The notes under the pieces are model-generated. The model was not told where the DNA came from, did no database searches, and saw only the letters and a list, made by a program, of their open reading frames with translations. A program made the position numbers and the translations under genes. A stretch of DNA of 64,000 nucleotides from NCBI RefSeq assembly GCF_013122565.1, contig NZ_CP053258.1. One strand, given 5' to 3'. The DNA comes from Escherichia coli (GTDB lineage: Bacteria; Pseudomonadota; Gammaproteobacteria; Enterobacterales; Enterobacteriaceae). This document shows, piece after piece, positions 1,346-12,819 of the stretch; the stretch's first letter is position 1, and each line of letters starts with the position of its first letter.

Positions 1346-1650
1346 AGAAAATTCTTCCTTAAAGCAAATTTTGTTACTTTTATTTAGCCAGATTGTTTTT
1401 GAGTTCTGTTTTCGGCTTTTATAATTACTGCAAGAAATAATTTTATATTTAGCGTATTGTTTTTTATTAGAATAAATAACGTCTTCCGATACGTTTAAAA
1501 CGTCAGAAAGATAAAAATATCACGTGAATTAAAAAAAGAACAAGTAGAGCATTAACCTTATCTTAAATAATAAATAGAGGCAAAAAGATTATTTTCTTTT
1601 TGCGTTTTCTTTCAAATGAAAACGATCGTCGTCTAAAATCAGCAGTACCC

Positions 1651-1680
1651 CCGACAAACTCAGGGATTTTGTGTATAATT
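1651..1680 (+). promoter_or_regulatory. Candidate sigma70 promoter for phnA with extended -10 (TGTGTATAAT)
   Basis: TGn-TATAAT at 1671-1680 with a weak -35-like CGACAA about 17 bp upstream, in an AT-rich leader about 70 bp before the phnA ATG. Confidence 0.35.
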
Positions 1681-1746
1681 GCGGCCTTTTTCGGCAATCT
1701 GCCGTTTTTTGGCGCTTTTGCCCTGCTGACTTTTGAGGAAATCCAC

Positions 1747-2082
1747 ATGTCATTACCACACTGCCCAAAATGCAACTCCGAATACACCTACGAAGATAAC
1801 GGCATGTACATCTGCCCGGAATGTGCCTACGAATGGAACGACGCAGAACCTGCACAGGAAAGCGACAAGCTGATCGTTAAAGATGCTAACGGCAATCTGC
1901 TGGCTGACGGCGACAGCGTTACCATCATTAAAGATCTGAAGGTGAAGGGTAGCTCTTCGATGCTGAAAATTGGCACCAAAGTGAAAAACATCCGCCTGGT
2001 TGAAGGCGACCATAACATCGATTGCAAAATCGACGGTTTTGGTCCGATGAAACTAAAATCTGAGTTTGTGAAAAAGAACTGA
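1747..2082 (+). CDS. phnA: PhnA, zinc-ribbon protein (111 aa)
   Basis: [30 protein letters not shown] zinc-ribbon N-terminus; ATG checked at 1747. The track ORF 1600-2082 is an upstream extension. Confidence 0.85.
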
Positions 2083-2094
2083 TTGTATTGTGAT

Positions 2095-2285
<191 letters not shown>

Positions 2286-2347
2286 AATCTCAACTGTTCA
2301 AATTTCGAACTACACTTAACTGGCTTCTCTTAACTGAGGTCATCATC

Positions 2348-2782
2348 ATGCCGTTAAGTCCCTACCTCTCTTTTGCCGGTAACTGTTCCGACGCGATTGC
2401 CTATTATCAACGTACGTTGGGCGCGGAACTGCTCTATAAAATCAGCTTCGGCGAAATGCCAAAATCAGCGCAGGACAGCGCCGAGAACTGCCCTTCCGGA
2501 ATGCAATTTCCCGATACCGCCATCGCTCATGCCAACGTGCGCATTGCCGGAAGCGACATCATGATGAGCGATGCTATACCGTCAGGAAAAGCTAGCTACT
2601 CCGGCTTTACGCTGGTGCTCGATTCGCAACAGGTCGAAGAAGGAAAACGCTGGTTTGATAACCTTGCCGCTAACGGAAAAATCGAAATGGCCTGGCAGGA
2701 AACTTTCTGGGCGCATGGCTTCGGCAAAGTCACCGATAAATTTGGCGTACCGTGGATGATTAATGTCGTTAAACAACAATAA
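2348..2782 (+). CDS. phnB: PhnB, glyoxalase/VOC-fold protein
   Basis: 144 aa from ATG at 2348 (MPLSPYLSFAGNCSDAIAYYQ...); the track ORF is an upstream extension. Confidence 0.8.
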   Translation: MPLSPYLSFAGNCSDAIAYYQRTLGAELLYKISFGEMPKSAQDSAENCPSGMQFPDTAIAHANVRIAGSDIMMSDAIPSGKASYSGFTLVLDSQQVEEGKRWFDNLAANGKIEMAWQETFWAHGFGKVTDKFGVPWMINVVKQQ

Positions 2783-2832
2783 TAGCTACCTGCTGCGCCC
2801 ACTGGCGTTAATTCCCAAAAAGGAGAAATACC

Positions 2833-3267
2833 ATGCCTGCTTGTGAGCTTCGACCGGCCACGCAGTACGACACCGACGCGGTTTACGCACTGATTTGTGA
2901 GCTAAAACAGGCGGAGTTTGACCACCACGCGTTTCGCGTGGGCTTTAACGCCAACCTGCGCGACCCAAACATGCGCTACCATCTGGCGCTGCTGGATGGC
3001 GAAGTTGTCGGCATGATCGGCCTGCATTTGCAGTTTCATCTGCATCATGTCAACTGGATCGGCGAAATTCAGGAACTGGTGGTGATGCCGCAGGCACGCG
3101 GTTTGAACGTTGGTAGCAAGTTGCTGGCGTGGGCGGAAGAGGAAGCCCGTCAGGCCGGGGCCGAAATGACCGAGCTTTCTACCAACGTGAAGCGCCACGA
3201 CGCGCACCGTTTTTATCTGCGCGAAGGCTATGAGCAGAGCCATTTCCGTTTCACTAAGGCGCTGTAA
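2833..3267 (+). CDS. phnO: GNAT-family N-acetyltransferase, PhnO-like (144 aa)
   Basis: 144 aa with a GNAT acetyl-CoA binding motif ([19 protein letters not shown]); sequence recalled as PhnO-like. Strong RBS AAAGGAGAA upstream. Confidence 0.55.
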
Positions 3268-3279
3268 GATGAGCCTACC

Positions 3280-3609
3280 TCATCGCCCATACTCATCTTC
3301 CATTCTCCGCTCTTCATCTTCTAGCTGCCGACGCTCCTGATCAAGCTGGCGCTGGCGATCGTCCAGTTGCCTGCGGCGATCTTCAAACTGGCGGCGGCGA
3401 TCGTCATATTGTCTGCGACGATCGTCGCTCACTTCACGCTGCCAGCTGTCGTCGCGCGAATCTTCATAGTCTCGCCCACGGTCAGGGTTATAAGCGTCGT
3501 TAATCGCCTGCTGAATATTGCCAATGGTGTCGTCGATAATATCGGCCTGGGCCGGAACGGTGGACAGCGTGAGCAGGGTGAAAAGAAAGAGCGTGGAGTG
3601 GTGTTTCAT
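3280..3609 (-). CDS. yjdP: Secreted low-complexity protein YjdP-like (109 aa)
   Basis: Signal peptide MKHHSTLFLFTLLTLSTVPAQA followed by charged DDRRRQ/EDRRRQ repeats. Confidence 0.7.
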   Translation of the reverse strand: MKHHSTLFLFTLLTLSTVPAQADIIDDTIGNIQQAINDAYNPDRGRDYEDSRDDSWQREVSDDRRRQYDDRRRQFEDRRRQLDDRQRQLDQERRQLEDEERRMEDEYGR

Positions 3610-3677: not shown

Positions 3678-5939
3678 TCAATTCTCTTGCCCCAGAACCT
3701 GCGCCAGCTGCGCGCGGGTAAAAGGTTTGCGCAACAGCGCTACGTCTGGCAGCGCGGGGTTATGGCTGGGGCGTAAATCCTGGCCGCTGATGAGTAGCAG
3801 CGTCAGATGCGGGTAAAGTTCGCGGGCCGCATTGACCACTTCTGCGCCGCTCATGCCGCCTGGGAGCATTAAATCGCTGATAAAAATATCGATTTCCGCT
3901 GATGCCGCCAGCAGGTCCAGCGCCTGTTCGCCGCTGCTCGCTTCCAGCGTCAAATAGCCCAGCAGGTGTAACTGCTCGCAGATGGTCTGGCGCACCGCGG
4001 CTTCATCTTCCAGCACGAGCACCAGTTTATCGCCGCTGACGGCTGTCTGTTCTACCGCCGCTGGCGATAGGTTTTTCGCCGCCGTCAGCGCGCGGGGAAG
4101 CTGTAATCTGACCGTTGTCCCCTGCCCCGGCGCGCTTTCAATTTCTACACGCCCACCGGACTGGCGCACAAAACCATAGACCATCGACAAGCCCAGCCCG
4201 CTGCCACTCCCCGTCTGTTTGGTGGTAAAGAACGGCTCAAAGACCTGGCTTTTCACCGCCTGCGACATACCGCTGCCATGATCGATGACCTCCAGCGCCA
4301 CCATGTCCTGACGCTGCCCACTGCTGCGGGTAACGCGCTGATTCCAGGTACGAATTTTGATAATTCCCGTCAGCCCTTCCATCGCATCGCGGGCGTTCAT
4401 CACCAGATTGATGATGGCATTTTCCAGCTGGCTGACATCAATCCACGCGGGCCATGCCGGAGACTGCGCTTCAATCTCAATCGTCAGCGTCGCCGGTAAG
4501 GAGTGGCGCATTAATTCGCTTAACTCTTCCAGCAGTGTTTTTAGCTCAACGGCTTGCGGATGTAAGGACTGCTTGCGGGAAAACGCCAGTAGTCGCTGGG
4601 TCAGTAGCGCGCCACGTTCGGCAGCTTGCTGCGCCCGCTGTATTCGCGGCGCGTCGGGTGAGTCCGTGTTCACCAGTTCCAGGCTGCCAATAATTACCGC
4701 CAACAGATTATTAAAATCATGGGCCAGCCCACCCGTCAATTGCCCAACCGCTTTCAGTTTCTGGCTGTGTAATAGCGCCTCTTCCAGCCCCTGCCTCTCG
4801 GTTTGGGCAATCTCCATCTGCGTGGTTTTCTCTTTCAACAGCCTTGACGTTCGTTCGAGTGACGCGGTATTGCGGGCAAAAACGTTAAAGGCGCGCGCCA
4901 GTTCACCCAACTCATCGCGCCGCTGTAACGCCGGAAAAGTGACGTCCGCTTCGCCGTGCGCCAGGCGGCTCATAGCGCGGGAAATCGCCGTCAGGTTAGA
5001 GCCGAGATTGCGATAGATATACCAACCTGCAAATGCGGTGATCACCACCGCTAACAGAGCGAAAATCATGATCACCCTCTCGCCGGAGCGCAAATCCTGG
5101 TAACTTTGCGCCACCCGCTGACCGGAGAGCATCGCCACCTGTTCGGCGTAACGGTTGATGTCGCCATTAAGGATCGCCACCAGCGCTTTGATGTGAAACA
5201 TATACCAGCTGATTGCCAGATCGCTTTGCTCCAGAGCGGCAGAAAGCGGCGCGAGTTTACGCAGTTCATCATTGAAATCATTGAGTAGCGTATTAACCAA
5301 TGGCGTATCGCTGTGGGTCGGCAACGCAGACATTACCCCGACCAGTTGATGAATAATCGCCTGCGGCGCGGGGGTGGCAATAGCGGCAACAATCAGTCGG
5401 TTCATCTCGTTAAGCAAAATATCATCTTGCGCATTAGTGACTTTTTGCAGATGCCGCAGATAACTTAAGTTTTGATACAGCGAACTTAACAGCGCGTTGC
5501 GCTCCAGATGTCGCCTTTGCCCGCGCTCCAACATTCCGCCGACGCTGGTTTGCAGTTCGTTGCTACGCGTGATGATGCGCGCCACCAGCCCGGCCTCCTG
5601 CTGCGCTAACGGCGCGTTCGCCAGTTGTGCAAGCGAGCTTTTTAATGCCCGCTGTGTCTCCTGCAATCGCTCGGCTTCGCCTTTATATTCCAGCGCTCCC
5701 ACCACTTGTGACAATCGCACCGCCGCCGTCGCCACATTTGCCGTGTCGCGCGCCAGATTCAGGCTGCCGGTCATATCATCCACCGTTTGCTGCTGTACCA
5801 GCTCCTGCATCTGGCTGGCATGACGAAAGCCCATTACCGCCACGCCGCTGACCATCAGCGTCACCGCTACCACCAGCAAATTCAAAAGCAGCAATCGCCC
5901 GCGCGCGCTGGCAAAAAAGTGACGTCCGGGGTGCGCCAT
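3678..5939 (-). CDS. Hybrid sensor histidine kinase (periplasmic sensor domain, HisKA, HATPase, C-terminal receiver; no Hpt)
   Basis: ATG at 5937-5939 (MAHPGRHFF...); two TM segments flank a roughly 290 aa periplasmic domain; H-box GGLAHDFNNLLAVIIGSLEL; G-boxes; C-terminal REC (LVLVLEDEAAVR...DLMLPGG). Confidence 0.8.
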   Translation of the reverse strand: MAHPGRHFFASARGRLLLLNLLVVAVTLMVSGVAVMGFRHASQMQELVQQQTVDDMTGSLNLARDTANVATAAVRLSQVVGALEYKGEAERLQETQRALKSSLAQLANAPLAQQEAGLVARIITRSNELQTSVGGMLERGQRRHLERNALLSSLYQNLSYLRHLQKVTNAQDDILLNEMNRLIVAAIATPAPQAIIHQLVGVMSALPTHSDTPLVNTLLNDFNDELRKLAPLSAALEQSDLAISWYMFHIKALVAILNGDINRYAEQVAMLSGQRVAQSYQDLRSGERVIMIFALLAVVITAFAGWYIYRNLGSNLTAISRAMSRLAHGEADVTFPALQRRDELGELARAFNVFARNTASLERTSRLLKEKTTQMEIAQTERQGLEEALLHSQKLKAVGQLTGGLAHDFNNLLAVIIGSLELVNTDSPDAPRIQRAQQAAERGALLTQRLLAFSRKQSLHPQAVELKTLLEELSELMRHSLPATLTIEIEAQSPAWPAWIDVSQLENAIINLVMNARDAMEGLTGIIKIRTWNQRVTRSSGQRQDMVALEVIDHGSGMSQAVKSQVFEPFFTTKQTGSGSGLGLSMVYGFVRQSGGRVEIESAPGQGTTVRLQLPRALTAAKNLSPAAVEQTAVSGDKLVLVLEDEAAVRQTICEQLHLLGYLTLEASSGEQALDLLAASAEIDIFISDLMLPGGMSGAEVVNAARELYPHLTLLLISGQDLRPSHNPALPDVALLRKPFTRAQLAQVLGQEN

Positions 5940-6052
5940 ATCACGCTCCGTGAAGAAAAATCGCAATATGACAAATATGAACGGCTTCTGACATTTTGCA
6001 TTTACTTTCCTGTGATGGAGTGCTGATATCGACAACCTCGCAGGAGTCCACC

Positions 6053-7573
6053 ATGAACAGCACGCCGGTTCTGGAGATGCGCAATATTGCCAAAGCTTTT
6101 GGCAAATTTTATGCGCTCAAAGGGGTGGATTTGACGGTCTACCCAGGAGAGATCCACGCCCTGATGGGGGAAAACGGCGCCGGAAAAAGCACGCTGATGA
6201 AGGTGCTGGCGGGGGCGTATACCGCCACCAGCGGCGAGATCCTGATAGACGGCAAGCCCTTTCACATTCGCACGCCGAAAGATGCCTTAAGCGCCGGTAT
6301 TACCCTGATTTATCAGGAGATGCAGCTGGCACCCAATTTGACGGTGGCAGAAAATATTTTTCTCGGCAGCGAGCTTTCCCACGGCGGGCTGGTGCAGCGT
6401 AAAGAGATGCTGGTGCAGGCGCAAAAAGTGATCGACCGCCTCGGCGCGCAGTTTAACGCCAGCGATAAGGTCATGACGCTGACCATTGCCGAGCAACAAC
6501 AGGTCGAAATCGCCCGGGCGCTGCATCGCAACAGCCGCATTCTGGTGATGGACGAACCCACCGCAGCCCTCTCCTCGCGTGAAACTCACCGCCTGTTTGA
6601 ATTAATCATGCGGCTGCGCGATGAAGGGATGGCGATTATCTACATTAGCCACCGCATGGCGGAAGTGTATGAGCTTTCCGATCGCGTCAGCGTGCTGCGC
6701 GACGGGCAATACGTTGGCAGCCTGACCCGCGACAACCTCAACGCCGGGGAGCTGGTGCGGATGATGGTCGGCAGGCCACTGAGCGATCTGTTCAATAAAG
6801 AGCGCGATATCCCGCTCGGTAAAGCCCGCCTGAACGTTCACCACCTGACCGACGGCGGCAAAGTCCAGCCGAGTAGCCTGCTGGTGCGTTCCGGCGAAAT
6901 TGTTGGCCTCGCCGGACTGGTGGGTGCCGGACGTTCCGAACTGGCGCAGTTGATCTTCGGCGTGCGCAAAGCGACAGGCGGAATGATTGAAGTCGATGGC
7001 GAACCGGTGGTGATCCACTCCCCGCGCGAAGCCATCGATCTTGGCATTGGCTTTCTCACCGAAAACCGCAAAGAACAAGGCTTATTCCTTGAAATGGCGG
7101 CAGCCGAAAACATCACCATGGCAACCCTGGAGCGCGACGCCCGCTGGGGAATGCTCAATCGCAAAAAAGCGCAAACCATTTCCGATGACGCCATTAAGTT
7201 GCTCAACATTCGCGTGCCTCATGCCCAGGTGCGCGCGGGCGGGCTTTCCGGCGGCAATCAGCAAAAACTGTTGATCTCCCGCTGGGTGGCGATTGGCCCG
7301 CGCATTTTACTGCTCGATGAACCCACCCGCGGCGTGGACGTTGGCGCAAAAAGCGAGATCTACCGGATCATGAACGAGATGGCACGCAAGGGCGTGGCGA
7401 TCCTGATGATCTCCAGCGAACTGCCGGAGATAGTGGGAATGAGCGATCGCGTCTATGTGATGCGTGAAGGCAGCATTGCCGGTGAGTTAAACGGCAAAAA
7501 CATCACCCAGGAAAACATTATGACCTTAGCGACCGGAGTTAACGACGCCCATTCCCAGGCGGTGACCTCATGA
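6053..7573 (+). CDS. Sugar ABC transporter ATP-binding protein (two fused ABC domains, RbsA/AlsA-like)
   Basis: Walker [10 protein letters not shown], signature LSGGNQQK, second ABC domain; ATG at 6053 with RBS CAGGAG. Confidence 0.85.
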
Positions 7574-8544
7574 CGACCTCTGCAAAAACCTCTGCCAAAA
7601 AAATGCTGATGAGCGATCTGATGCAAACGGTCGGCATCTTGCCCATTTTGATTCTGATCGTGGCGGTATTTGGCTTTATCGCGCCAAACTTTTTTAACGA
7701 AAGCAACCTGCTAAATATTACCCGCCAGGCGTCGATCAACATTGTGCTGGCGGCGGGAATGACCTTCATCATTTTGACTGGCGGGATCGATCTTTCTGTA
7801 GGTTCAATTCTCGGCACCACGGCGGTGGCGGCGATGGTCGTCTCCCTTAGCCCTGAGTTCGCCATGCTGTCGATCCCGGCGGCGCTGATGCTCGGTCTGC
7901 TGCTGGGGCTGTTCAACGGCGCGCTGGTGGCCTTTGCCGGATTGCCGCCGTTTATCGTCACGCTTGGCACCTATACGGCGCTGCGCGGGGCGGCGTATCT
8001 GCTGGCGGACGGCACCACGGTTATCAACTCCAACATTAATTTCGAGTGGATAGGCAATAACTATCTCGGGCCGGTCCCGTGGCTGGTGGTGATTGCGCTG
8101 GCGGTGATCGTGGTGTGCTGGTTTATTCTGCGCCGCACCACGCTTGGTGTTCATATCTACGCCGTCGGCGGCAATATGCAGGCGGCGCGTCTTACCGGCA
8201 TTAAGGTCTGGCTGGTGCTGCTGTTTGTTTATGGCATGAGCGGCCTGCTTTCAGGGCTTGGCGGGATTATGAGCGCCTCGCGGCTGTACAGCGCCAACGG
8301 CAACTTAGGCATGGGTTACGAACTGGACGCCATTGCGGCGGTGATCCTCGGCGGCACCAGTTTTGTCGGCGGCATCGGCACCATCACCGGCACGCTGGTC
8401 GGGGCGCTAATTATCGCCACGCTCAACAATGGCATGACCTTAATGGGCGTCTCTTACTTCTGGCAACTGGTGATCAAAGGGGCGGTGATCATCATTGCGG
8501 TGCTGATCGACAAATACCGTACCCGACACCATCAAAGTGCATAA
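7570..8544 (+). CDS. Sugar ABC transporter permease (RbsC-like)
   Basis: Polytopic membrane protein; ATGA start overlap with the upstream ATPase gene. Confidence 0.8.
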
Positions 8545-8562
8545 ACACATGAGGAATACAGC

Positions 8563-9504
8563 ATGAGATTGAAGCCCTTAGTGACCGCGCTCTGTGCAGG
8601 CGCGCTGCTGGCCGCAGCACCGTTCGCCCAAGCGAAAGAACTGAAATCGATAGGCGTAACGGTGGGCGATCTGGCGAACCCGTTCTTCGTGCAGATCACC
8701 AAAGGCGCGGAGCTGGAAGCACGCAAACTGGCAGGCGATAACGTCAAAGTGACGCTGGTTTCCAGCGGCTACGATCTGGGCCAGCAGGTGTCGCAGATAG
8801 ACAACTTTATCGCCGCTAACGTCGATATGATTATCCTCAACGCTGCCGATTCAAAAGGGATCGGCCCGGCGGTGAAACGGGCGAAAGATGCCGGGATCGT
8901 GGTCGTCGCGGTTGACGTGGCGGCAGAAGGTGCCGATGCCACTATCACTTCCGATAACACCCAGGCAGGCGAAATGGCCTGTAAATACATCACCGATCGC
9001 CTGAAAGGCAAAGGCAATGTGGTGATCATCAACGGCCCGCCGGTGTCCGCCGTGCAAAACCGCGTTGAAGGATGCCAGACTGAATTTAAACGCCATCCTG
9101 ACATCAAGGTACTCTCTGACAACCAGAACGCGAAAGGCAGTCGTGAAGGCGGGCTGGAGGTAATGACCGGACTGCTGGCGGCAAATCCGAAGATCGACGG
9201 TGTATTTGCGATTAACGATCCGACAGCGATCGGTGCCGATCTGGCAGCAAAACAGGCGCAACGTAACGAGTTCTTTATTGTCGGCGTAGACGGAAGCCCG
9301 GACGCCGAAGAGGCGCTAAAACGTGAGAACTCGTTGTTTGTCGCCACTCCAGCACAAGATCCCCAGGTGATGGCAGCAAAAGCGGTTGAGATCGGTTATG
9401 ACATTTTGCAGGGCAAACCCGCGCCGAAAGAGCCGGTGCTGATCCCGGTGACGATGATCGATAAAAACAACGTCGGCAATTACAAAGGCTGGACGGTGAA
9501 ATAA
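8563..9504 (+). CDS. Periplasmic sugar-binding protein (RbsB/LacI-type periplasmic binding fold)
   Basis: Signal peptide MRLKPLVTALCAGALLAAAPFAQA; PBP type I features. Confidence 0.8.
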   Translation: MRLKPLVTALCAGALLAAAPFAQAKELKSIGVTVGDLANPFFVQITKGAELEARKLAGDNVKVTLVSSGYDLGQQVSQIDNFIAANVDMIILNAADSKGIGPAVKRAKDAGIVVVAVDVAAEGADATITSDNTQAGEMACKYITDRLKGKGNVVIINGPPVSAVQNRVEGCQTEFKRHPDIKVLSDNQNAKGSREGGLEVMTGLLAANPKIDGVFAINDPTAIGADLAAKQAQRNEFFIVGVDGSPDAEEALKRENSLFVATPAQDPQVMAAKAVEIGYDILQGKPAPKEPVLIPVTMIDKNNVGNYKGWTVK

Positions 9505-9558: not shown

Positions 9559-10242
9559 ATGAAACGCTCCGCTATAAACGACATTCTCGGCCATACACGG
9601 CAATTCTTTTCGCAACATGACGTACATCTGCCGCCCTTTGCCAGTTTCTCGCCTGCTCAATGGCAGCAGCTCGACACCGCCGCGTGGGAGGAGGTTTTTG
9701 ATCTCAAACTCGGCTGGGATGTTACCGCTTTTGGTGGCAACAACTTTGCAGCACAGGGGCTGACGCTGTTTACCCTACGTAACGGCTCAGCAAAAGGAAT
9801 GCCGTATGTGAAATGTTACGCCGAGAAGATCATGCATGTGCGCGATGCGCAGGTCACGCCAATGCATTTTCACTGGCGTAAGCGTGAGGACATTATCAAT
9901 CGCGGCGGCGGTAATTTAATTGTTGAACTGTGGAATACCGATAGTAACGAGCAAACGGCTGATAGTGACGTTACGGTGGTGATAGACGGCTGCCGCCAGA
10001 AACATACTGCAGGCACTCAGTTGCGCCTGTCTCCCGGCGAAAGTATCTGCCTGCCGCCCGGCCTGTATCACAGCTTTTGGGCGGAAACCGGTTTTGGCGA
10101 TGTACTGGTTGGCGAAGTCTCTTCTGTCAATGACGACGACCACGATAACCACTTTTTACAGCCACTGGACCGCTACAACCTGATTGACGAAGACGAACCT
10201 GCACAGTTGGTGTTGTGTAACGAATACCGCCAGTTCCGCTGA
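9559..10242 (+). CDS. Cupin-fold sugar isomerase, D-lyxose/D-mannose isomerase-like (227 aa)
   Basis: 227 aa with His-rich cupin motif (HFHWRKRED); resembles the D-lyxose isomerase described from pathogenic E. coli (recalled, not searched). Confidence 0.55.
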   Translation: MKRSAINDILGHTRQFFSQHDVHLPPFASFSPAQWQQLDTAAWEEVFDLKLGWDVTAFGGNNFAAQGLTLFTLRNGSAKGMPYVKCYAEKIMHVRDAQVTPMHFHWRKREDIINRGGGNLIVELWNTDSNEQTADSDVTVVIDGCRQKHTAGTQLRLSPGESICLPPGLYHSFWAETGFGDVLVGEVSSVNDDDHDNHFLQPLDRYNLIDEDEPAQLVLCNEYRQFR

Positions 10243-10256
10243 ATAAGGAGAACGTT

Positions 10257-11117
10257 ATGTCATTGATTTCTCTCGCTGAAGGGCTGGCTCATGCCCGCGA
10301 ACATCGCTATGCGTTAGGTGCGTTTAATGTACTGGACTCGCACTTTTTACGCGCCTTGTTTGCTGCTGCCAGACAAGAACGTTCGCCCTTTATTATCAAC
10401 ATTGCCGAAGTACATTATAAATATATCTCGCTGGAATCCCTGGTCGAGACAGTGAAATTTGAAGCGGCGCGCCATGCCATTCCGGTGGTATTAAATCTCG
10501 ATCACGGGCTGCATTTTGAGTCGGTGGTGCAAGCGTTGCGGCTGGGATTCAGCTCGGTAATGTTTGATGGCTCCACGCTGGGGTATGAAGAAAATGTCCG
10601 CCAAACGCGGGAAGTGGTGAAAATGTGCCATGCCGTTGGCGTATCGGTAGAAGCTGAACTGGGCGCGGTGGGTGGCGACGAAGGCGGTGCGCTCTATGGT
10701 CATGCCGATGAATCCCTGTTTACCGATCCGCAACTGGCGCGTGATTTTGTCGACCGTACCGGCATTGACGCGCTGGCCGTGGCGATTGGCAATGCACACG
10801 GCAAATATCGCGGCGAACCGAAACTCGATTTCCTACGCCTCGACGCTATCCGCCAGCAGGCTGCTATCCCGCTGGTATTACACGGCGGCTCAGGGATTAG
10901 CGATGCCGATTTCCGCCGCGCCATCGAACGGGGTATCCACAAAATCAATTTCTACACTGGCATGTCGCAAGCGGCGCTGGCTGCCGTTGAGGCCCGAATG
11001 GCGCACCGTCAGCCGATGTATGATGAGTTTGCCGAGTTACTACTAGCAGTGGAAGCCGCCATCAGCGATACGGTTGCACAACAGATGCGTATTTTCGGCA
11101 GTGCGGGGCAGGCATGA
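10257..11117 (+). CDS. Class II ketose-bisphosphate aldolase (FbaA/GatY/KbaY family)
   Basis: 286 aa; conserved NLDHG, HGGSG motifs of class II aldolases. Confidence 0.75.
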   Translation: MSLISLAEGLAHAREHRYALGAFNVLDSHFLRALFAAARQERSPFIINIAEVHYKYISLESLVETVKFEAARHAIPVVLNLDHGLHFESVVQALRLGFSSVMFDGSTLGYEENVRQTREVVKMCHAVGVSVEAELGAVGGDEGGALYGHADESLFTDPQLARDFVDRTGIDALAVAIGNAHGKYRGEPKLDFLRLDAIRQQAAIPLVLHGGSGISDADFRRAIERGIHKINFYTGMSQAALAAVEARMAHRQPMYDEFAELLLAVEAAISDTVAQQMRIFGSAGQA

Positions 11118-12115
11118 TGGAACGTAGAGGGATTATCGCCGCAGGCAATATGTTGGTTGACCACGTCCATCAGATTATCCAGTGGCCAGAGCGCGGCTGG
11201 CTGGCGGAGATTACCCACAGCGAACGCTCCACCGGCGGCGCGCCGCTTAATGTCCTGCTGACACTGGCGAAAATGCGCACCGGGTTGCCGTTACAGGCGG
11301 TTGGGCTAATCGGTCAGGACAGCGACGGCGATTACATCATGGCGATGCTTGAGCAATATCACGTCAATCGTCAGCATGTGCAGCGCACTACCTTTGCCCC
11401 GACGTCGATGTCACAGGTGATGACCGACCCAAGCGGGCAGCGGACGTTTTTCCATTCGCCGGGTGCAAACAGACTTTTGGATCTTCCGGCGTTCGATCAG
11501 CTCGATAACACCATGAAGATTTTCCATCTCGGCTATTTACTGTTGCTCGACAGCCTGGATATGCCGGACGATGTTTACGGCACCCGTAGCGCACGACTGC
11601 TGGCGCAAATGCGTGATACTGGCTTTGAAACCTCACTCGACCTGGTCTCCCGCAAGGGCGATCCGCGTTATCAGCCGCTGGTGCTGCCCGCGTTGCGCCA
11701 TCTGGATTATCTGGTAATTAACGAACTGGAGGCCGGGGAGTTTAGTGGGCTGGAAATTCGGTTACCCAACGGCGAACCGCATATCGCGCATATTGCTGCC
11801 GCCGCGCGTGAACTGTTAGATGCGGGCGTGCGCCAGCGTGTGGTGATCCACTGCCCGGAAGGGGCCTGGGGAGAAACCCCGGAACAGGGCGGCGTGTGGA
11901 TCCCTTCGCAAAAGTTAGAACAACGGGAAATTATCGGCAGCGTCGGTGCGGGCGATGCATTTTGTGCCGGATTTTTATATGGCTGCCATGAGTGCTGGGC
12001 GCTAACTGAGAGCATAAAACTGGCACATGCCTGCGCGCGGGCAAGCCTGTTATGCGCTAATGCCATCGACGGGGCAAAAACGCTGGAAGAGTTGCAAACA
12101 GAAATGTCAGATTAA
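11114..12115 (+). CDS. PfkB-family carbohydrate kinase
   Basis: 333 aa; C-terminal GAGDAFCAGF motif; start overlaps the aldolase stop (ATGA). Confidence 0.7.
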   Translation: MMERRGIIAAGNMLVDHVHQIIQWPERGWLAEITHSERSTGGAPLNVLLTLAKMRTGLPLQAVGLIGQDSDGDYIMAMLEQYHVNRQHVQRTTFAPTSMSQVMTDPSGQRTFFHSPGANRLLDLPAFDQLDNTMKIFHLGYLLLLDSLDMPDDVYGTRSARLLAQMRDTGFETSLDLVSRKGDPRYQPLVLPALRHLDYLVINELEAGEFSGLEIRLPNGEPHIAHIAAAARELLDAGVRQRVVIHCPEGAWGETPEQGGVWIPSQKLEQREIIGSVGAGDAFCAGFLYGCHECWALTESIKLAHACARASLLCANAIDGAKTLEELQTEMSD

Positions 12116-12819
12116 TGCACGTCGGCAGCGAAGACATACCCCAGGCCGCGCAGAGTTTTAATCAACATCGGCTGATGCGGATTGAGTTCGATTTTGCGTC
12201 GTAAGCGCATGATTAAGACGTCGATGGTGCGATCAAACACTTCCACGCTATCGCTATGAGTGAACGCCAGCAGCTGCTCGCGGCTTAATACCCGACGGGC
12301 ATTTTGTGCCAGGGCCAGTAACAAGCCATATTCGCCCTGAGTCAGCTCGACATGTTGTTGTAGCGGACTATGCAGTTGACAGCGAATGGTATCGAGATAC
12401 CAGCCATTGAATGACAGCCCGGCGTTTTTCTCCTCGTTAACCGCCAGCGCGCCAACCCGTCGCAACACCGCTTTCAGTCGTGCGACCACCACCCGCGGGG
12501 TGAACGGTTTGCAGATGTAATCATCCGCGCCCATTTCCAGCCCGACCACCACATCAGACTCACTGCCCATGCCGGTCAACATCACCACCGGCAATGTCGG
12601 ACGCAGTTTCTGGATTTGCTGCAATATCCTCAGGCCGTTGGTATCGGGTAGCATCATATCCAGCACCACCAGCGCAATGTCAGGATCGCCCTCAATACGC
12701 AATATGGCCTCCTGTCCGGTATGGCAGACTGAAACCGTAAAGACATGTTCACTTAACACGTCCTGCAGCAGTGCGCAGATAGCCGTGTCATCATCCACCA
12801 CCAGCACGACGGGTTTCAT
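12112..12819 (-). CDS. OmpR-family response regulator (REC plus winged-helix)
   Basis: MKPVVLVVDDD... receiver domain, C-terminal LRGLGYVF winged helix; convergent 4-bp overlap with the kinase gene. Confidence 0.8.
   Translation of the reverse strand: MKPVVLVVDDDTAICALLQDVLSEHVFTVSVCHTGQEAILRIEGDPDIALVVLDMMLPDTNGLRILQQIQKLRPTLPVVMLTGMGSESDVVVGLEMGADDYICKPFTPRVVVARLKAVLRRVGALAVNEEKNAGLSFNGWYLDTIRCQLHSPLQQHVELTQGEYGLLLALAQNARRVLSREQLLAFTHSDSVEVFDRTIDVLIMRLRRKIELNPHQPMLIKTLRGLGYVFAADVH

Follow-up and report, generated by a model that had tools for sequence, protein, structure and literature searches.

Escherichia coli O157:H7 carries a two-component system that has been studied under two names, LmvK/LmvR (Yang et al. 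2023, PMC10128022) and RbfS/RbfR (PMC9860305), and that a 2024 review treats as one system (PMC11644481). We analysed a hybrid histidine kinase gene within a 64,000-nucleotide (nt) stretch of E. coli contig NZ_CP053258.1 (hereafter the window) and identified it as the ortholog of the kinase LmvK (RbfS), which is encoded on island OI-167 of strain EDL933. Gene and system are already known, since two papers and a review cover the O157:H7 ortholog. An earlier sequence-only reading of the window had missed that the system is already characterised.

In strain EDL933, mannose and lyxose induce the lmu genes via lmvK and lmvR (PMC10128022). Growth on lyxose depends on the LmvK/LmvR system and on the lmu genes, the intervening genes that were named lmuKAIZYX in the same study (Yang et al. 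2023, PMC10128022). Residues H410 and D54 were both shown to be required for function, and in a DNase footprint LmvR protected the lmuX promoter from −41 to −62, a region containing ATATGA-N3-ATATGA (PMC10128022). The model in the legend of Fig. 8 of that paper passes the phosphate on 'via an unknown Hpt' (PMC10128022). For RbfS, autophosphorylation and direct in vitro phosphotransfer to RbfR were demonstrated; 20 µM riboflavin raised the autophosphorylation of the purified kinase, with no binding protein present (PMC9860305). The induction by riboflavin of genes in the locus of enterocyte effacement (LEE) needed both rbfS and rbfR (PMC9860305). Transfer of rbfSR alone into Citrobacter rodentium and other enterohaemorrhagic E. 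coli (EHEC) serotypes gave the response. Deletion of lmuKAIZYX caused no colonisation defect, unlike deletion of lmvK or lmvR.

Several other described systems resemble this one in part. TorS of the TMAO system TorS/TorT/TorR (E. coli, Vibrio) has a bimodular four-helix-bundle periplasmic sensor. The torS gene and that of a class-I binding protein are divergent, the gene of the OmpR-family regulator TorR is convergent at the end, and TorT comes without a transporter. LuxQ is a hybrid kinase without an Hpt domain that senses through the Peripla_BP_4 binding protein LuxP and uses the Hpt protein LuxU. In the RcsC/RcsD/RcsB system, RcsC is an E. coli hybrid kinase itself without an Hpt and depends on the separate Hpt protein RcsD. 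VirA of the VirA/ChvE/VirG system (Agrobacterium tumefaciens), in which a sugar ATP-binding cassette (ABC) binding protein is involved, has no Hpt and phosphorylates VirG directly, and its receiver is inhibitory and also recruits the regulator (PMC4705274).

An ortholog of LmvK (RbfS) without an Hpt domain

The kinase was 97% identical to the O157:H7 copy over its full length (753/756 amino acids), and the nucleotide identity to O157:H7 genomes was 95.1–95.5%. The two kinases had the same domain order and the same phospho-accepting histidine and aspartate residues, and both lay in the same nine-gene island with the ATATGA-N3-ATATGA operator. Identity, synteny, operator and key residues all identified the gene as the ortholog of the OI-167 kinase. 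The O157:H7 kinases contain a 9-nt tandem duplication in the periplasmic domain, by which the residues FND are repeated, and the copy in the window lacked it (~5268–5276, around residue 224). Because of these three additional amino acids, H407 and D689 here correspond to the published H410 and D692. All annotated orthologs begin at the ATG given in Table 1; a longer open reading frame (ORF) from a TTG, reaching up to 6035, was a mechanical extension only. In the closest complete genome, that of E. coli LHM10-1 (97.4% identity; L002 9001–11260), the kinase was annotated as a frameshifted pseudogene and the remaining island was intact.

A Pfam domain search, which had been proposed as a check in the sequence-only reading, found HisKA, HATPase_c and Response_reg domains. 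The receiver had an intact acidic pocket, with E644/D645, D689 (codon 3873–3875), S718 and K738 all present, making the protein a hybrid histidine kinase. The phospho-acceptor H407 (codon 4719–4721) was located in an H-box, GGLAHDFNNLL, of the NtrB/CckA/VirA class. No Hpt domain was found in the kinase by Pfam, and its C-terminus at residue 753 was only 13 residues past the KPF of the receiver. In an alignment of kinase residues 286–750 with TorS residues 329–795, the kinase stopped where TorS has a further ~120 residues leading into its Hpt. These results confirmed what the sequence-only reading had observed, namely a hybrid kinase with a large periplasmic domain, a fused receiver and no Hpt. 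The length of about 290 residues that it gave for the periplasmic domain was an overestimate, as hydropathy indicated about 250, and its interpretation of the system was partly supported.

The absence of the Hpt extended to the whole family. Relatives were collected by scanning one genome per species with a four-sequence alignment as the query; relatives were found in 182 genomes, of which the best 80 were examined. All 86 complete family kinases were without an Hpt and ended 12–30 residues past the KPF. Pfam annotation of the genes on five contigs with relatives (up to 10 kb on each side where the contig allows) showed no Hpt gene. In contrast to RcsC, the kinase had no partner such as RcsD linked to it in the genomes examined. 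The acidic pair, Asp, Ser/Thr and Lys of the receiver were invariant or conservatively replaced in 88 of 88 family kinases. About half of the family kinases were longer by ~100 residues, due to a PAS_7 domain between HAMP and HisKA, which was cleanly deleted in the kinases of Escherichia, Citrobacter, Enterobacter and Leclercia (window ~4750–4870, residues 358–398). An Hpt in the longer relatives (~870 amino acids) was considered and rejected, since PAS_7 accounts for the extra residues.

In profile searches, the kinase core and receiver matched the PRK13557, CckA and VirA-like models best, and not TorS. Since the sensor is TorS-type by predicted fold (see below) and the core and receiver score best against PRK13557/CckA/VirA-like models, the kinase is a mosaic in which a TorS-type sensor and HAMP are joined to a PRK13557/CckA/VirA-like core and receiver. 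It shares with VirA the layout of transmembrane segment (TM), periplasmic domain, TM, linker, kinase and receiver, and its kinase and receiver aligned to the VirA-like model through the C-terminus of that model (E 4.8e-64). The partner regulator belongs to the OmpR family and matched the VirG model with an E-value of 1e-53. The differences from VirA were a periplasmic domain that is listed as dCache-like for VirA and was modelled as helical here, and the phenolic-sensing linker of VirA. The differences from TorS were the Hpt and the classical SHE..TP H-box of TorS, which is replaced by AHDFNN in the kinase. The kinase reached 135 and 76 bits against the TorS models TIGR02956 (cut-off 676.5) and NF008543 (cut-off 982), and 216.7 bits against the VirA-like model NF010411 (cut-off 647). 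As it falls below the curated cut-offs of both, lacks the TorS Hpt and lacks a periplasmic fold of the VirA type, it is partly TorS-like and partly VirA-like and a member of neither.

A TorS-type sensor and a tor-box-like operator

Searches of Pfam and of the PDB with the sequence of the periplasmic domain (residues 39–287) gave no match, so that the fold of the sensor was found only by structure prediction and a fold search. Its relatives were few (60 cluster representatives of 1.84 billion at E ≤ 0.001). An AlphaFold2 model built from a 23-sequence alignment was all-helical, with a pLDDT of 88.9 and a predicted template modelling score (pTM) of 0.77. The top match in the PDB, determined with Foldseek, was the TorS sensor of the TorS–TorT complex (3o1h_A). 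The TorS sensor of V. parahaemolyticus (3i9y) matched with template modelling scores of 0.64/0.71, and the HBM chemoreceptor domains of PilJ and McpS came next. The periplasmic domain is predicted from this model to be a TorS-type double four-helix bundle. The comparison with LuxP–LuxQ drawn in the sequence-only reading failed on the fold, and the kinase was rejected as LuxQ-type: the periplasmic domain of LuxQ is dCache-like, whereas the model here was all-helical.

The most conserved periplasmic stretch across the family was the motif RLSQVVGALEYxxE (window 5700–5740, residues ~75–88). The model places this motif where helix 1 turns into helix 2, well away from TM1 along helix 1, and it is a candidate site for ligand binding or docking.

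An alignment of the intergenic regions between kinase and lmuX revealed one conserved block, TAAATGCAAAATGTCAGnnGCCGTTCATATTTGTCATA; the operator was conserved in 51 distinct sequences. Of the 79 loci in which the block was located, 77 had it 68–76 nt from the lmuX start; in the Vibrio-like loci L008 and L010 this distance was 80 and 105 nt. The distance to the kinase start was variable, from 40 to 1190 nt. In the direction of lmuX, the block of the window held the published ATATGA-N3-ATATGA (5966–5980). Read in the opposite direction, the centre of the block was C(C/T)GTTCATAT, in which 9 or 10 of 10 positions matched the tor box consensus CTGTTCATAT (taken from PMC9239176). The K-12 torC promoter around box 4, CTGTTCATATTTGCTCAT, is nearly the same string as the block centre (L091 5975–6050). 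In the window, the LmvR operator had a sole match; on the minus strand it read GTTCATATTTGTCATA, holding the 9/10 tor box CCGTTCATAT. The likeness to Tor comprised the operator and the regulator, with LmvR 36% identical to TorR. The differences were that the operator here faces away from the operon it controls and that its repeats are spaced by 9 bp instead of 10.

A scan of the intergenic region with the strict sigma-70 consensus found no promoter. Reading by eye suggested a −35 element CTGACA (5988–5993) and a −10 element TGTGAT (6011–6016), consistent with the position of the published footprint. The RbfR footprint on ler (TCTCACATAATTTATATCATT) was also considered as an instance of the same motif. 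It was rejected: AT-rich (C/T)CAT elements occur in both the ler footprint and the conserved operator, but with different spacing.

Phosphate route and input signal

The output side of the system is settled by the published work together with the conservation of the operator. In the mechanism that we favour, the kinase would autophosphorylate when mannose or lyxose is present and activate the OmpR/TorR-like LmvR (RbfR, D54). Phosphorylated LmvR would bind tor-box-like direct repeats, ATATGA-N3-ATATGA, in the divergent lmuX promoter (about −41 to −62), immediately upstream of a weak −35 element. This binding would turn on lmuXYZIAK, encoding the ABC importer, the D-lyxose/D-mannose isomerase, the aldolase and a kinase. 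The phosphate would move directly from H407 to LmvR D54 without an Hpt, and the fused receiver would act as a competing acceptor or as a docking or gating module, as in VirA. We infer the role of the receiver and the absence of an Hpt step in vivo. The sequence-only reading had posed the alternative of an Hpt supplied in trans or a receiver acting as phosphate sink. This was the right question, on which the literature itself is divided, with one paper drawing an unknown Hpt and the other showing direct transfer in vitro.

Direct transfer from H407 to D54 is probable, because it was obtained in vitro, no Hpt was linked to the system in any lineage, rbfSR works in other hosts and the kinase and receiver are of the VirA/CckA class. 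Several points weigh against it. Yang et al. include an unknown Hpt in their model (PMC10128022), and the in vitro transfer was obtained at a kinase to regulator ratio of 1:10 and is no proof of the route in vivo. RcsC–RcsD provides a precedent in E. coli for a hybrid kinase with an Hpt in trans. The conservation of the receiver residues indicates that the receiver is probably phosphorylated or at least functional, which would fit a competing or gating role; the strict conservation of its phospho-acceptor is also expected of a true relay step. The rival route would be a four-step phosphorelay from H407 to D689, on to an Hpt from another locus (that of RcsD, ArcB, BarA, EvgS or TorS) and then to LmvR D54. 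This relay would explain the catalytic residues conserved in 88 family members, agrees with the model in PMC10128022 and could work as RcsC–RcsD does, an example of an Hpt acting in trans in E. coli. It is at odds with the direct in vitro transfer to RbfR and with the finding that no Hpt gene accompanied the cluster in ~80 loci from Escherichia to Vibrio-like relatives. It would also need a promiscuous host Hpt, given that rbfSR alone worked in C. rodentium and other EHEC serotypes, and the closest class of kinases includes VirA, for which no Hpt is needed. Because the conservation of the receiver fits gating and relay alike, our preference for direct transfer is moderate and the relay through an orphan Hpt is unlikely.

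A separate question is how the sugar is perceived. The sequence-only reading had placed the binding protein LmuZ beside the kinase and proposed an arrangement like TorT–TorS. The protein is real, but it is not adjacent, as the genes for the ATPase and the permease lie between the two. The locus order and the constant linkage of kinase and ABC genes agreed with the proposal, and the interaction itself was left unsupported. In such an arrangement, LmuZ would bind mannose or lyxose and dock on the helical periplasmic domain of the kinase, so that one protein would act in uptake as well as in signalling, like ChvE with VirA. The proposal is about signal input and could be combined with direct transfer or with a relay. 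The predicted sensor fold matches that of TorS, for which sensing is known only via TorT. The order of kinase (−), binding protein (+) and regulator (−) mirrors torS, torT and torR, and regulator and operator are both TorR/tor-box-like. The kinase gene adjoined the genes of the ABC transporter and binding protein in all loci with enough upstream sequence, even where the isomerase, aldolase and kinase genes were missing or the sensor identity was 24–29%, and the binding protein was unusually conserved across genera (92–97%). However, the linkage is equally explained if the transporter is the regulated target. LmuZ belongs to an ABC importer, in contrast to TorT; it was only 23% identical to TorT and reached 41.9 bits against the TorT model (cut-off 200). 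A docked complex was sought with a fused AlphaFold2 model of binding protein, 30-residue linker and sensor (13-row paired alignment, no interface scores, for a kinase that is dimeric), a prediction that the sequence-only reading had also proposed. With a pTM of 0.48, both domains were folded, the linker was disordered and their relative placement was not confident, which neither supports nor excludes a complex. The lack of a colonisation defect upon deletion of lmuKAIZYX, unlike that of lmvK or lmvR, argues against an obligatory role of LmuZ. Purified RbfS responds to riboflavin without a binding protein, and HBM domains such as that of McpS bind small ligands directly. The interaction between LmuZ and the kinase is therefore putative, and docking is conceivable but falls short of being the expected outcome.

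Riboflavin might instead be the physiological ligand, bound directly by the periplasmic domain, in which case the link to the sugar operon would be secondary. The raised autophosphorylation of RbfS in vitro at 20 µM riboflavin and the need for rbfS/rbfR in the riboflavin induction of LEE genes (PMC9860305) speak for this. On the other side, the kinase–regulator pair was linked to sugar ABC transporter genes and to lyxose/mannose isomerase genes across the Enterobacteriaceae and in distant relatives, and lmuX is the target of the sole operator that is conserved together with the system. The operon is inducible by mannose and lyxose via LmvK/LmvR, and the RbfR footprint on ler does not have the spacing of the conserved operator. 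We regard riboflavin as an improbable physiological signal; it may be an added or incidental ligand. A sugar is suggested as the ancestral cue by the deep linkage of the system to genes for sugar transport and lyxose/mannose isomerisation. A combined scheme is doubtful as a whole. It would make the system a relative of Tor coupled to a transporter, with LmuZ as the actual sugar sensor docking on the TorS-type domain, no Hpt in the pathway and a receiver that, as in VirA, gates LmvR or recruits it.

The island, its neighbours and its distribution

The kinase gene was flanked by phnO and yjdP on one side and by the divergent sugar operon on the other, followed by the convergent regulator gene and, beyond it, yjcS (Table 1). 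The same nine genes were present between yjdP and yjcS in the matching E. coli genomes, including those of O157:H7. The product of lmuK has been reported to have fructose kinase activity (PMC10128022). The DNA of the flank yjcS–mdtNO was 98.6% identical to ordinary E. coli, which assigns the window to E. coli, broadly defined.

Table 1. Features of the lmv/lmu locus, with positions in the window.
Feature	Positions	Strand	Basis or remark
Kinase ORF	3678–5939	−	753 amino acids; start ATG 5937–5939
Fused receiver (Response_reg), residues 640–748	3696–4022	−	Pfam
HATPase_c catalytic domain, residues 501–616	4092–4439	−	Pfam PF02518, E 1e-20
HisKA/DHp, residues 399–458	4566–4745	−	Pfam
HAMP, residues 309–357	4869–5015	−	Pfam PF00672, E 7.4e-9
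TM2, residues ~288–308	5016–5078	−	Hydropathy and codon mapping
Periplasmic sensor, residues ~39–287, predicted all-helical TorS-type/HBM double four-helix bundle	5079–5825	−	
TM1, residues ~17–38	5826–5891	−	Hydropathy scan and codon mapping
LmvR operator ATATGA-N3-ATATGA upstream of lmuX	5966–5980	+	Published footprint; found independently as phylogenetic footprint
Conserved intergenic block TAAATGCAAAATGTCAGnnGCCGTTCATATTTGTCATA, three repeats TGTCA/GTTCA/TGTCA	5967–6004	−	Alignment of kinase–lmuX intergenic regions
lmuX, sugar ABC transporter ATPase	6053–7573	+	NCBIfam AraG/XylG/RbsA-like; 100% identical to O157 protein
lmuY, ABC permease	7570–8544	+	
lmuZ, periplasmic sugar-binding protein, candidate co-sensor	8563–9504	+	RbsB-like, Peripla_BP_4
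D-lyxose/D-mannose isomerase (lmuI position)	9559–10242	+	NF051472, 439 bits (cut-off 350)
lmuA, ketose 1,6-bisphosphate aldolase	10257–11117	+	NF005284, 573 bits (cut-off 406)
lmuK, PfkB-family sugar kinase	11114–12115	+	
lmvR/rbfR, OmpR/PhoB-family response regulator, 235 amino acids, D54	12112–12819	−	Far end of operon, convergent

On the other side of the kinase, the phn region (window 1600–3609) was truncated, with yjdM/phnA and yjdN followed directly by phnO (2833–3267) and yjdP (3280–3609, minus strand). The genes phnC–N and phnP were absent in the window. The same layout was found in E. coli LHM10-1, and O157:H7 LSU61 has the entire phn operon. Upstream of yjdM, positions 1001–2000 had a low GC content (42.6% versus ~55% around it) and contained several overlapping short ORFs on both strands.

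Among 5426 complete E. coli genomes, 410 contained a match to the kinase DNA, with 90–97% identity. Many of these were O157:H7, and non-O157 strains from pig, goat and human were also among them. The best 80 of the 182 species-level genomes with relatives were almost all Enterobacteriaceae, including Citrobacter, Leclercia, Enterobacter, Kosakonia, Raoultella, Buttiauxella, Cedecea and Atlantibacter. In all loci that extended far enough upstream of the kinase gene, this gene was divergent from those for ABC ATPase, permease and binding protein. Raoultella-type loci were without the isomerase, aldolase and kinase genes and kept the regulator and the divergent ABC genes. In one relative the downstream gene encoded an FGGY kinase, and the ABC linkage still held. 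AT-rich relatives with a sensor identity of only 24–29% kept the ABC linkage, regulator, isomerase, aldolase and PfkB kinase, and had an added ROK kinase. The binding protein was far more conserved than the sensor domain of the kinase, with 92–97% identity across the enterobacterial genera and 74–82% in the distant relatives.

What the analysis adds to the published work is modest and comprises the predicted TorS-type fold, the tor-box-like operator with its fixed spacing, the family-wide absence of the Hpt, the PAS-less and PAS-containing forms and the distribution beyond EHEC. Since the lmuX operator matches the tor box at 9–10 of 10 positions, TorR might bind the site of LmvR, and LmvR those of TorR; if the combined scheme of a transporter-coupled Tor relative were true, this near-perfect box would allow cross-talk between the two regulators. 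The distribution contradicts the 'EHEC-associated' label used in the two papers. These papers disagree on signal and phosphate route: riboflavin with direct transfer in one, mannose with an assumed unknown Hpt in the other. The comparative data bear on this disagreement, with no Hpt in or with the family and a Tor-like sensor, regulator and operator. The kinase–regulator pair is an old and widespread regulator of a sugar operon in the Enterobacteriaceae rather than an invention of EHEC.

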